Positions 54,365-55,662 of a stretch of 64,000 nt of DNA are shown here, one piece after another. Under the pieces are notes generated by a model. That model was not told the origin of the DNA. It searched no databases and saw only the letters and a list, made by a program, of their open reading frames with translations. Source of the DNA: Minisyncoccota bacterium (lineage in GTDB: Bacteria > Patescibacteriota > Minisyncoccia > Phycocordibacterales > UBA9973); NCBI GenBank assembly GCA_035353995.1, contig DAOQAL010000001.1, forward strand, positions 209,464 through 273,463, read 5' to 3'. The first letter of the stretch is position 1. The number at the start of each line of letters is the position of its first letter. The position numbers and the translations under genes were made by a program.

Positions 54365-55662
54365 TGGAATTTAAAATCGAGAAAAAATTAAAAAATAGCT
54401 TAGGTAGAGCTGGAACGTTGACTACTGCACATGGGTCAGTAGAAACACCAGCTTTTGTAGCAGTTGGTACTAAAGCAACTGTAAAATCTTTAAATCCAGA
54501 ACAAGTACGTGATGATGGTACACAAATTGTTCTTTGTAATACTTATCATCTTTTTTTACAACCAGGCGATGAAATAGTAAAAGATGCTGGTGGAATAGGA
54601 AAGTTTATGAATTGGAAAGGTCCGACAATGACAGACTCAGGAGGCTTTCAAGTTTTTTCATTAGGAGTAGCTTATGGAAAAGAAATTTCTAAAATAATAA
54701 AAAGAATTACAGATCCGTCACTTATGATACCTGAACGTTTCGATGATAGTGATGCGCCGAGATTAGCAAAAATAGGGAATGATGGAGTTTCATTTAAGTC
54801 TCATTTAGATGGATCAATTCATTATATTACTCCAGAAAAATCTATTCAGATTCAACACAACCTCGGCGCTGATATAATTTTTGCTTTTGATGAATGTACA
54901 TCTCCAGCGGAGGATTTGAAATATCAGGAAGAAGCATTGGAGCGTACGCATCGATGGGCTGAAAGAAGTTTAGCGGAGCATAAGAGACTCTCTTTCGAGA
55001 AAGAAACTTCTCTTGCGGGGTCGCTGTCTCCGCTTGCTAGCGGAGCGCTGCCTCTCGGCCCGTCGGCCTGTGAGACACCCCGCAATAGAACTTCTTTCTT
55101 TTCCCCAGCATTGTTTGGTATTGTGCAGGGTGGGCGTGATGAAAACTTACGAAAGAAAAGTGCGAAGGCAATTTCTGCTATGGACTTTGATGGTTTCGGA
55201 ATAGGTGGATCTTTTGCAAAAGAAGATATGTCTAGCGCAGTGAAATGGGTTAATGAAATTTTACCAGAAGAAAAACCACGCCATTTGCTTGGTATAGGGG
55301 AGCCGGAAGATTTATTTATGGGAATAGAAAATGGAGTGGATCTTTTTGATTGTGTTATACCAACTCGTCTTGGAAGAAATGGAACTATATATACAAAATT
55401 TGGAAAAATAATAATTACAAATACAAAATTCAGAAATGATTTTACTCCAATTGAAAGTGATTGTGATTGTTATACTTGTAAAAATTATAATCGTGCATAT
55501 ATAGCACATTTATTTCACGGTAAAGAGATGTTGGCTGGTACTTTGGCTTCAATTCATAATTTATATTTTATAACTAACCTAGTAAAAAGAATTAGAAAGT
55601 CTATTTTAGATGATAATTTTTTTGAATTTAAAGATGAATTTTTATCAAATTATAAAAGGTAG
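54364..55662 (+). CDS. tgt: queuine tRNA-ribosyltransferase carrying an in-frame ~35-aa GC-rich insertion
   Basis: …[18 protein letters not shown]…, …[12 protein letters not shown]…, the catalytic Asp region and the Zn site CDCYTC…H. The insert [38 protein letters not shown] replaces a short loop found in typical Tgt. Confidence 0.9.
55003..55097 (+). mobile_element. GC-rich palindromic MITE/RPE-like element inserted in frame in tgt, flanked by TSD-like direct repeats
   Basis: Core 55013-55085 TTGCGGGGTCGCTGTCTC…GAGACACCCCGCAA, with terminal inverted repeats and internal hairpins CTCCGC-TTGCTA-GCGGAG and GGCC-CGTC-GGCC. Flanking direct repeats are AGAAACTTCTC (55002-55012) and AGAACTTCTTTC (55087-55098). 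Confidence 0.45.

Follow-up and report, generated by a model that had tools for sequence, protein, structure and literature searches.

The tgt gene, encoding queuine tRNA-ribosyltransferase (Tgt), in the 64-kb stretch of Minisyncoccota DNA analysed here (64,000 nt of contig DAOQAL010000001.1, below called the window) contains a GC-rich hairpin segment that is very probably a mobile palindromic element inserted in frame, and one copy of an element family that has been given the name family A. At least 139 copies of this family were found, in at least 10 gene families including tgt and in intergenic DNA, and our verdict is that it constitutes a new family of 'protein-coding palindromes' in Patescibacteria, similar in behaviour to the Rickettsia palindromic elements (RPEs). 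The sequence-only reading of the window had suggested a GC-rich, RPE-like palindromic element in frame in tgt, and this suggestion holds, as the element is optional, occurs in both orientations and at a second site in tgt, and is also found in at least nine other gene families and between genes.

The GC content of the window is 30.4%, and around 55000-55100 it is 59-68%; the peak of 68% in an 80-nt sliding window, over 54971-55127, is the highest of the 64 kb, tRNA genes aside. The Tgt protein of the window matches PF01702 in Pfam with E=2.9e-135 and TGT structures in the PDB with E about 1e-94, and it is 100% identical to protein P0001 from a 421-kb Paceibacterota contig, the source organism being of the Paceibacterota/Nomurabacteria type within the Patescibacteria. 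Its alignment to the Z. mobilis TGT breaks where query residues 203-247 correspond to residues 182-194 of the chain, and the approximately 32 extra residues are placed between the RWAERS helix and the ALFGIVQGG strand, in agreement with the extra segment that had been noticed in front of the ALFGI(V/I)QGG motif. In an AlphaFold2 model of mediocre quality (mean predicted local distance difference test score 63.7, residues 216-246 below 50) the insert is found between a helix (residues 185-218) and a strand (249-254). The model thus places it in a helix-to-strand loop of the TIM barrel, and this loop should face away from the catalytic C-terminal strand ends of the (beta/alpha)8 barrel.

Positions 54990-55110 (121 nt) were folded with RNA and DNA parameters on both strands, with 200 shuffles each. 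The energies with RNA parameters were -52.8 kcal/mol (z -4.85) for the plus strand and -57.5 kcal/mol (z -4.66) for the minus strand, and with DNA parameters -31.2 (z -5.87) and -33.8 kcal/mol (z -5.56) respectively, and in each of these all 200 shuffles folded less well. The suspected palindrome is thus borne out by folding, with z from -4.7 to -5.9 on both strands and with both parameter sets, and the window copy folds better as minus strand. The fold has the shape of a single long stem closing two small hairpins (Table 1), and all the nested stems named from the sequence are present in the minimum-energy fold, namely CTCCGC/GCGGAG (hairpin 1), GGCC/GGCC (hairpin 2) and TTGCGGGG at 55013-55020 with CCCCGCAA at 55078-55085. 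The inverted repeat I1, at 55005-55021 and 55077-55093, is 88% complementary, and a covariance model, R1, matches the window at 55013-55083 with 97.1 bits and E=1e-20. The plus strand of the element is the plus strand of the window and the sense strand of tgt. The extent first proposed, 55003-55097, was right as to the place of the element, but the hairpin is slightly longer. No relevant Rfam family matches the element at the gathering threshold or at a permissive one with E up to 10, and a scan for promoters and terminators gave no promoter-like or terminator-like site at the element. Two spurious ORFs (open reading frames) of the window overlap the GC-rich element; the one at 55013-55204 was rightly called spurious from the beginning, but it had been taken as antisense and is in fact located on the plus strand in the +1 frame, and a separate ORF is present on the minus strand. 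The frame of this minus-strand ORF is the one that is translated where the element lies oppositely in other genes.

Table 1. Features of the family A copy in tgt and of its host gene (window coordinates).
Feature	Position	Strand	Description	Basis
tgt (queuine tRNA-ribosyltransferase), host gene	54364..55662	+	432 aa; reading frame intact through the element	ORF list, Pfam
Whole hairpin element	54997..55100	+	104 nt; outer stem and Y-shaped core	RNA and DNA folds, inverted repeat I1, covariance model R1
Outer stem, left arm	54997..55021	+	GAGAAAGAA..UUCU.UUGCGGGGU; pairs with 55077-55100	Minimum-energy fold
Outer stem, right arm	55077..55100	+	ACCCCGCAA.AGAA.UUCUUUCUU	Minimum-energy fold, inverted repeat I1
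Conserved core	55019..55077	+	59 nt	Fixed-length pattern match
Hairpin 1	55028..55045	+	7-bp stem CTCCGCT/AGCGGAG, loop TGCT	Covariation
Hairpin 2 arm	55049..55077	+	T30-A58 to GGCC/GGCC, loop CGTC (inner hairpin 55057-55068)	Covariation
Element-encoded peptide	54997..55101	+	Tgt residues 212-246	Translation
Spurious ORF	55013..55204	+	63 aa, +1 frame, opened by the GC-rich element	ORF list
Spurious ORF	54924..55085	-	53 aa, reads the reverse complement of the element	ORF list

The family was counted by a metagenome scan, in which the core pattern GGTCGCTGTCT-N14-AGCGCTSMCTCTCG matched at least 120 loci, together with related loci; the element was masked, the ORFs spanning it were classified, and the hosts were confirmed by Pfam. 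Tgt has at least 29 copies, the UvrD-type helicase at least 22 and TsaD at least 13, followed by RecG with at least three, and IleRS, UvrC and peptide deformylase (Def) with at least two each. At least one copy was found in each of the C-terminal region of DnaE, an RluA-type pseudouridine synthase, a PrsW-type protease (near the N-terminus and possibly upstream of the true start) and a terpene-cyclase-like protein, at least 12 are in unclassified long ORFs, and at least 50 are intergenic or could not be assigned. A clear intergenic copy is located between the 3' end of priA and rpsU (L084:1243-1353). The uvrD gene of locus L140 has two copies, and the uvrD site at about position 100 is filled in L140, L162 and L200 and empty in L099, L167, L188 and L192, while both orientations occur at the uvrD site at about 380 and likewise in tsaD and recG. 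Family A moves within and between Paceibacteria-type genomes (Patescibacteria, or candidate phyla radiation, CPR), in either orientation. The search for further copies that the sequence-only reading called for had a divided outcome, with no second copy in the 64-kb window but numerous ones in the metagenomes and related loci. Searches with the peptide were less productive; a composite of the four open-frame peptides matched three proteins only, and the 35-aa insert, searched exhaustively against 50%-identity representatives, also gave three proteins, and led via P0125 to the intergenic copy in L084. Few are found in this way because the insert is invisible when the cluster representative does not carry it.

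Some copies occur in pairs. In L106, on a contig of higher GC, inverted family A copies at 11721-11759 (plus strand) and 12637-12675 (minus strand) flank a gene for a 247-aa protein similar to S-adenosylmethionine-dependent methyltransferases. At the paired-copy loci no transposase was found between the copies, the interval holding the methyltransferase gene in L106 and no gene in L098. The copies of L106 and other intergenic copies have a further motif, CGCTCGC ... CTCGCT, outside the stems, and hosts that are less rich in AT may thus have a sub-family, or a composite unit of larger size.

The family A unit, read as a non-autonomous selfish element, is about 100-115 nt and consists of a long imperfect outer stem closing a 59-nt Y-shaped core with two small hairpins. 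The core has the consensus GGTCGCTGTCT-[5 bp]-TGCT-[5 bp]-AGCGCT[G/C][C/A]CTCTCG-[3 bp]-CGTC-[3 bp]-CTG[C/T]GAGA[C/G]A, with an internal spacing of CGCTGTCTCC-N10-GGAGCGCTGCC, and its length is fixed, being matched in at least 141 places that represent at least 113 distinct cores. The loops are conserved in sequence (TGCT in 96 of 118 cores and CGTC in 97 of 118 distinct cores), as are the bulges and the junction bases of the core, and the stems are conserved in pairing only. Each of the five variable pairs of hairpin 1 is Watson-Crick in 114-117 of 118 distinct cores, against 44-74 with shuffled partners, and each shows all four types GC, CG, AT and TA. The pairs 39:48, 40:47 and 41:46 of hairpin 2 also covary and are Watson-Crick in 114-115 of the 118. 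Core pair 31:57 is GC in 71 and CG in 39, and lengthens the hairpin-2 arm; the pairing TGTCTC...GAGACA proposed from the sequence has to be given up, as covariation pairs the GAGA[C/G]A position with core position 31 instead. In the inner hairpins G:U pairs are rare, at about 1%. In an alignment of 60 copies, scored for the stated structure of 25 pairs with 500 shuffles, 96.3% of the cells were paired compared to 77.8% in the shuffles, and 253 cells were changed on both sides compared to 74.6, a value that none of the 500 shuffles reached. When the partners were slid by 1-3 columns the pairing was only 31-48%. Helix 3 (hairpin 1) was 98.8% paired with five of its seven pairs changed on both sides, and helix 4 (hairpin 2) was 99.5% paired.

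The outer stems are complementary in all copies listed (median 27 aligned bp). When copies from different host genes are compared, up to about 20-24 nt per side of this flank is common to both (median 2-4 nt), an example being uvrD of L190 and tgt of L197, indicating that the mobile unit is about 100 nt and includes most of the stem. The stem sequence turns over fast while the complementarity persists. That the stems are inverted host flank, or that cores have entered pre-existing palindromes, was considered because the distal stem bases overlap host codons and because of a bare palindrome in L152; this origin is not needed in general, with about 20-24 nt of stem travelling with the core, and may hold for a few pairs at the distal end. 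The palindrome of L152 is located in uvrD, at the site that is filled by family A in L140, L162 and L200. It is 29 nt long with two 14-nt arms around one central base and without a core (TCACTGTCAAGGTTCAACCTTGACAGTGA, encoding QKSLSRFNLDSEE), and could be a footprint after loss of the core or a pre-existing palindrome of the kind that such cores might enter.

The element can be read through without a stop in four of the six frames. Among the matches listed, 72 copies are located inside ORFs with a length of at least 200 aa and all of these are stop-free, with the +0 frame used in 35, the -0 frame in 37 and the other two open frames in none. The +0 frame gives the peptide GSLSP..ALPLG.SACETP. 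The two Arg/Cys-rich open frames are confined to ORF ends and to short spurious ORFs, and the +1 frame is stop-free across the window element, yet never used inside real genes. A copy would add a multiple of three bases and, in both used frames, a stop-free peptide rich in Gly, Ser, Pro, Ala and Asp that is predicted to be disordered. Such an insert probably contributes nothing to Tgt function, and the survivors would be only those insertions that leave essential genes translatable, the element being presumably carried as a neutral or nearly neutral passenger by a Tgt loop that tolerates it.

The occupancy of the tgt loop was followed among relatives, and comparison with close orthologues, as proposed in the sequence-only reading, showed the insert to be missing, reversed or duplicated. 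In a protein alignment of 41 Tgt homologues with 80-88% identity, most carry S[LF]AGSLSP..ALPLG.SACETP at the insert position. The insert is absent from P0088, P0097/L003, L010 and L012, which are close orthologues of 81-88% identity, and in P0085, P0090/L002, P0114, L007 and L019 the element is reversed, giving the peptide GVSQ.D..RGSAP..DSDP. Translating the reverse complement of the window element yields this peptide, and the flip was confirmed in the DNA of L002. A second tgt copy, after the CxCxxC zinc motif, is present in L001 (P0005) and L019. The site-2 copy of L001 is 97.8% identical to the window copy over 92 nt, the tgt genes of the two being only 81-83% identical in DNA and the site-1 copy of L001 85% identical to the window copy. 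These identities fit recent movement and not vertical descent of a protein loop.

A wider set of 84 tgt loci was composed of the window, three metagenome contigs and 80 GTDB species representatives. The loop between ..EHKKL and ALFGIVQG carries an insert in 40 of them, and in the large majority of the loci without one it has 47-51 residues, counted from FDEC to VQG. The reading frame is kept in all 84, including the 40 with an insert. Twelve of the loop copies belong to family A and the remainder to several unrelated sequence families, and for 25 of the 40 inserts the fold has a z of -3 or lower. Some of these other families have extra copies outside tgt in the flanking 10 kb (L045:12386-12438, L051:16384-16456, L047:17489-17576 and L048:13280-13373). 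Patescibacteria thus harbour a wider set of hairpin elements inserted in frame, to which family A belongs.

Hairpin inserts that are not family A were seen in the tgt loop of other Paceibacteria, in loci from L008 to L054, e.g. L046:10619-10768, L047:10607-10753, L053:10613-10834, L044:10607-10756 and L011:10610-10732, and one of these families shares the motif GGTCCTCGG...GCCAGACC. The Tgt protein has other additions as well. Residues 102-133 (window 54667-54765; VAYGKEISK...) form another insertion, of about 31 residues, by comparison with the Z. mobilis TGT, which is AT-rich, non-palindromic and nearly invariant across the clade, and which, unlike the mobile insert, appears to be a genuine conserved part of Tgt in this lineage. 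At least four more positions have short lineage-specific inserts rich in Gly, Ser, Ala and Arg in some homologues, at the N-terminus (P0040, P0114), after NW (P0068), after ..IS.. (P0016/P0047/P0077) and after CxCxxC (P0054/P0028), with SAKSGSASGGK, VDLAPYGAPGSRSG and GGKRSDLKGAQGLTLRSQG as examples; these may be other GC-rich elements or remnants of such.

The boundaries of the element bear on the question whether it is a classical miniature inverted-repeat transposable element (MITE), i.e. a deletion derivative of an insertion sequence whose mobility relies on a DDE transposase, which recognizes conserved terminal inverted repeats and duplicates the target site. The sequence-only reading had seen the architecture of a miniature inverted-repeat element, with the direct repeats AGAAACTTCTC and AGAACTTCTTTC as flanks resembling a target-site duplication. 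Small size, lack of genes for its own mobility, inverted-repeat ends, many copies and insertion polymorphism all agree with a MITE, but the two direct repeats are located inside the arms of the outer stem and hence do not constitute a target-site duplication, and no such duplication was found among 114 copies, where the sequences adjoining the stems on either side agree over 4 nt in none and over 3 nt in four. The base profiles of the same 114 copies show no conserved flanking motif or tetranucleotide. There is no conserved terminal inverted repeat either, the arms being complementary within a copy and not conserved between copies, as also seen from the short flank shared between host genes (median 2-4 nt, maximum about 24 nt); it is the central core that is conserved and not the ends, and 2.3 Mb of loci showed no full-length parent element. 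The MITE architecture is thus not upheld, and we regard an origin of this kind as improbable.

The pairing of the outer stems differs between the two strands of the element. Transition mismatches are A:C on the element plus strand, and hence G:T or G:U wobbles on the minus strand, in 125 cases, compared to 28 of the opposite kind. With the element plus strand sense to the host ORF there are 34 minus-strand and nine plus-strand wobbles, with it antisense 42 and 14, and for elements not in a long ORF (intergenic or not assigned) 49 and five. The sign of the asymmetry does not depend on the direction of the host gene, showing that it belongs to the element and not to the host mRNA, which argues against a role at the mRNA level. 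Such a role, as a cis-acting RNA structure in the tgt mRNA that serves as a translational pause, a stability element or a tRNA-like decoy for Tgt, would account for the very stable fold and the strong covariation, and the intergenic copy just downstream of priA is at a place where a hairpin could stabilise a transcript. The binding of stem-loops by Tgt, established for the Tgt family, is also in its favour. Against this, the element is found either way round in tgt as well as in unrelated genes, the better-pairing strand of the window copy is antisense to tgt, and the inner hairpins are nearly without G:U pairs, which is unusual for a selected RNA. Mimicry of the Tgt substrate, which would need a U-G-U loop, was ruled out since the loops are conserved as TGCT and CGTC, and neither the Rfam search nor the promoter and terminator scan described above gave a match. 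An RNA function in tgt mRNA is for these reasons very unlikely.

An even less probable alternative is that the roughly 35 residues constitute a lineage-specific functional loop of Tgt, selected as protein, with the palindromic DNA being incidental. The conservation of S[LF]AGSLSP..ALPLG.SACETP in many homologues at 80-86% identity and the frame always being kept in tgt could be read in this way. However, in other Tgt orthologues the reversed DNA gives an unrelated peptide at the same site, close orthologues are without any insert, and the element is also present in UvrD, TsaD, RecG, IleRS, UvrC, Def, DnaE and intergenic DNA. It is the base pairing that is conserved, with compensatory changes altering the peptide, and the insert is predicted to be disordered, so that a functional loop is already largely refuted. 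CPR bacteria are known for insertions in their rRNA genes, and a tiny spliced element, intron-like or removed at the RNA or protein level and only seemingly translated, would be a highly structured, self-contained unit with conserved junction bases as observed here, but splicing would not require the intragenic copies to be all stop-free with the downstream frame kept and two of the four open frames used, the element also occurs in intergenic DNA and has no ribozyme or intron family match in Rfam, and with about 100 nt or 35 aa it is far below the size of self-splicing introns and too small for an intron or intein, so this is scarcely credible.

For the mobile element in tgt, movement would be explained by a trans-acting structure-specific enzyme that recognizes the folded single strand of the element, for which a transposase of the HUH/Y1 type or a recombinase acting on folded single strands are candidates. 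We infer such a mechanism because the loops and junctions are conserved in sequence while the stems keep pairing only, because pairing of the inner hairpins is nearly strictly Watson-Crick, because target-site duplications and conserved terminal repeats are absent, and because wobbles pile up on one element strand regardless of the direction of the host gene. The strand asymmetry is compatible with a single-stranded intermediate of defined polarity, but also with an element-oriented mutational process, and mobility by recognition of a single-stranded structure is put forward tentatively, at somewhat less than an even chance. A bolder proposal, that family A and the unrelated hairpin families of the tgt loop make up a new structure-defined class of mobile elements in Patescibacteria, moving as a folded minus strand by means of a host or phage enzyme and targeted to, or selectively kept in, genes for DNA and tRNA enzymes (Tgt, TsaD, RluA, IleRS, UvrD, RecG, UvrC and DnaE), is considered unlikely. 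If true, it would imply a functional link between the structure of the element and these enzymes, beyond mere tolerance.

Several points weigh against the reading of the tgt segment as a mobile, translated passenger. The number of copies per genome may be low, as there is one copy in 64 kb and the covariance model, run over 1.44 Mb (10 kb on either side of tgt in 84 genomes), gave 14 copies in tgt and one weak match elsewhere; tgt may therefore be a preferred or an especially tolerant site. No transposase or recombinase partner turned up, although no systematic search for one was made, and the asymmetry of the strands could come from a mutational process oriented by the element and not from selection on a single-stranded intermediate. 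Where the element is found in both orientations at one site (tgt, uvrD and tsaD), inversion between the stem arms could be the cause in place of independent insertion; a simple inversion about the centre of the palindrome would put the -2 frame in register, unless the crossover took place in the middle stem segment (in window coordinates), and on this arithmetic inversion and re-insertion are indistinguishable. Translation of the insert would follow from the conservation of the frame. Finally, with a weak AlphaFold2 model the putative surface position of the loop leans mainly on the topology of the TIM barrel.

Two other GC-rich stretches of the window deserve mention. An intergenic region with 60% GC at 13595-13702, next to a tRNA-Ser gene (13487-13574, minus strand), contains three short GC hairpins, cccgccaagggcggg, ccccgaagggg and ccccgttgggg. 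Its terminal sequence, tgcgaaccctcc, repeats the 5' end of the neighbouring tRNA-Ser, and on the minus strand reads GGAGGGUUCGCA... plus GGUCUAG. No convincing Rfam match was obtained for this region, which has the appearance of an incomplete tRNA-Ser copy broken up by GC-rich hairpins, or of an integration scar. The second, at 34719-34870 with about 60% GC, overlaps the C-terminal end of a 198-aa ORF on the minus strand (34763-35359) and a 118-aa overlapping ORF, and no similarity to family A was seen in it.

For annotation, inserts of this type inflate protein lengths and create spurious overlapping ORFs, and they can mislead alignments, phylogenies and structure predictions of CPR markers such as tgt, uvrD, tsaD and ileS. 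With more than 100 copies, rich covariation, two translated orientations and a strand asymmetry, family A also constitutes a tractable set for finding the enzyme that mobilizes elements of the RPE and CGTC types, and can be used to ask how essential proteins absorb insertions of about 35 residues.

No earlier description of such elements in CPR, Patescibacteria or Parcubacteria was found in the library of papers searched, and the known systems that come close are found in other organisms. The coding palindromes in mitochondria of Nematomorpha (PMC6649704) are similar in being long, near-perfect inverted repeats tolerated in functional protein-coding genes, but their arms are conserved host coding sequence and they form no dispersed family, whereas family A is an insertion with a non-host core. 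The palindrome-associated transposable elements (PATEs) derived from IS200/IS605, which transpose as single strands, are without target-site duplications and classical terminal repeats and have conserved hairpins and strand-specific properties, all as in family A; they differ by distinct left-end and right-end hairpins and insertion 3' of a fixed target of 4-5 nt, family A having no conserved flanking motif.

The GC clusters and double-hairpin elements of fungal mitochondria reportedly have some copies inside coding regions that they do not break. In the summary of the work of Paquin, Laforest & Lang (2000) and of that on yeast given in PMC7218506, these elements are GC-rich, optional (mobile) and short, are found in small, very AT-rich genomes and have a two-hairpin architecture, as does family A. 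They differ in being organellar and unrelated in sequence, with a mobility tied to recombination or gene conversion, and no long outer stem is described for them.

Repetitive extragenic palindromes (REPs) were reviewed by Di Nocera et al. 2013 (PMC3733652), who describe intragenic REPs of the GTAG and CGTC super-families and the REPINs that are moved by RAYT tyrosine transposases. As in family A, the hairpins are conserved in structure and variable in sequence, and some copies are in genes for DNA repair and RNA enzymes; REP dimers fold into larger hairpins, the hairpin of the single strand is thought to be the form that is recognized, and the CGTC REPs are likewise without a dedicated transposase (PMC3733652). 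REPs are however only 20-40 nt, carry at the base of one stem a GTAG or CGTC tag that stays unpaired, and are mostly extragenic (PMC3733652), whereas family A is about 100 nt, asymmetric and not a head-to-head dimer, and its CGTC is the loop of hairpin 2. By size, symmetry and position of the tag family A is therefore not a tagged REP.

The nearest counterparts are the RPEs of Rickettsia, whose in-frame copies are reviewed in PMC10969869. RPE-1 to RPE-10 (Ogata et al. 2000, 2002), as they are presented in PMC10969869 and PMC3733652, are palindromic repeats of about 100-150 nt in a reduced, AT-rich genome, located in frame in many unrelated housekeeping genes and in intergenic DNA, with a conserved peptide, presence or absence among orthologues and no known transposase, and in all this family A is like them. 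Intragenic REP and RPE copies are concentrated in uvrA/B/C/D, recBCD, dnaE, aminoacyl-tRNA synthetase and pseudouridine synthase genes (PMC3733652), and the host classes of family A overlap with these; uvr genes, dnaE, aminoacyl-tRNA synthetases and pseudouridine synthases are shared with the RPEs as presented in the two reviews. Dispersed copies, a stable hairpin, in-frame insertion with the ORF continuing through it and optional presence among orthologues, by which an RPE-like element is recognized, were all found for family A. The differences are that RPEs belong to Alphaproteobacteria and family A to Patescibacteria, and that family A is GC-rich in an AT-rich host, has a Y-shaped core of fixed length and hypervariable, strictly Watson-Crick stems, and is translated in both orientations at the same site with two of its four open frames used. 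The likeness to RPEs is one of behaviour, family A working like them and being placed beside the RPE families, not among them. In-frame selfish palindromes have hitherto been regarded as peculiar to Rickettsia, apart from intragenic REPs scattered in other organisms, and a presumably sequence-unrelated family with the same behaviour in Patescibacteria indicates that the phenomenon recurs in a deeply separate lineage with very small, AT-rich genomes, the GC-rich hairpin elements of fungal mitochondria being a possible third parallel.

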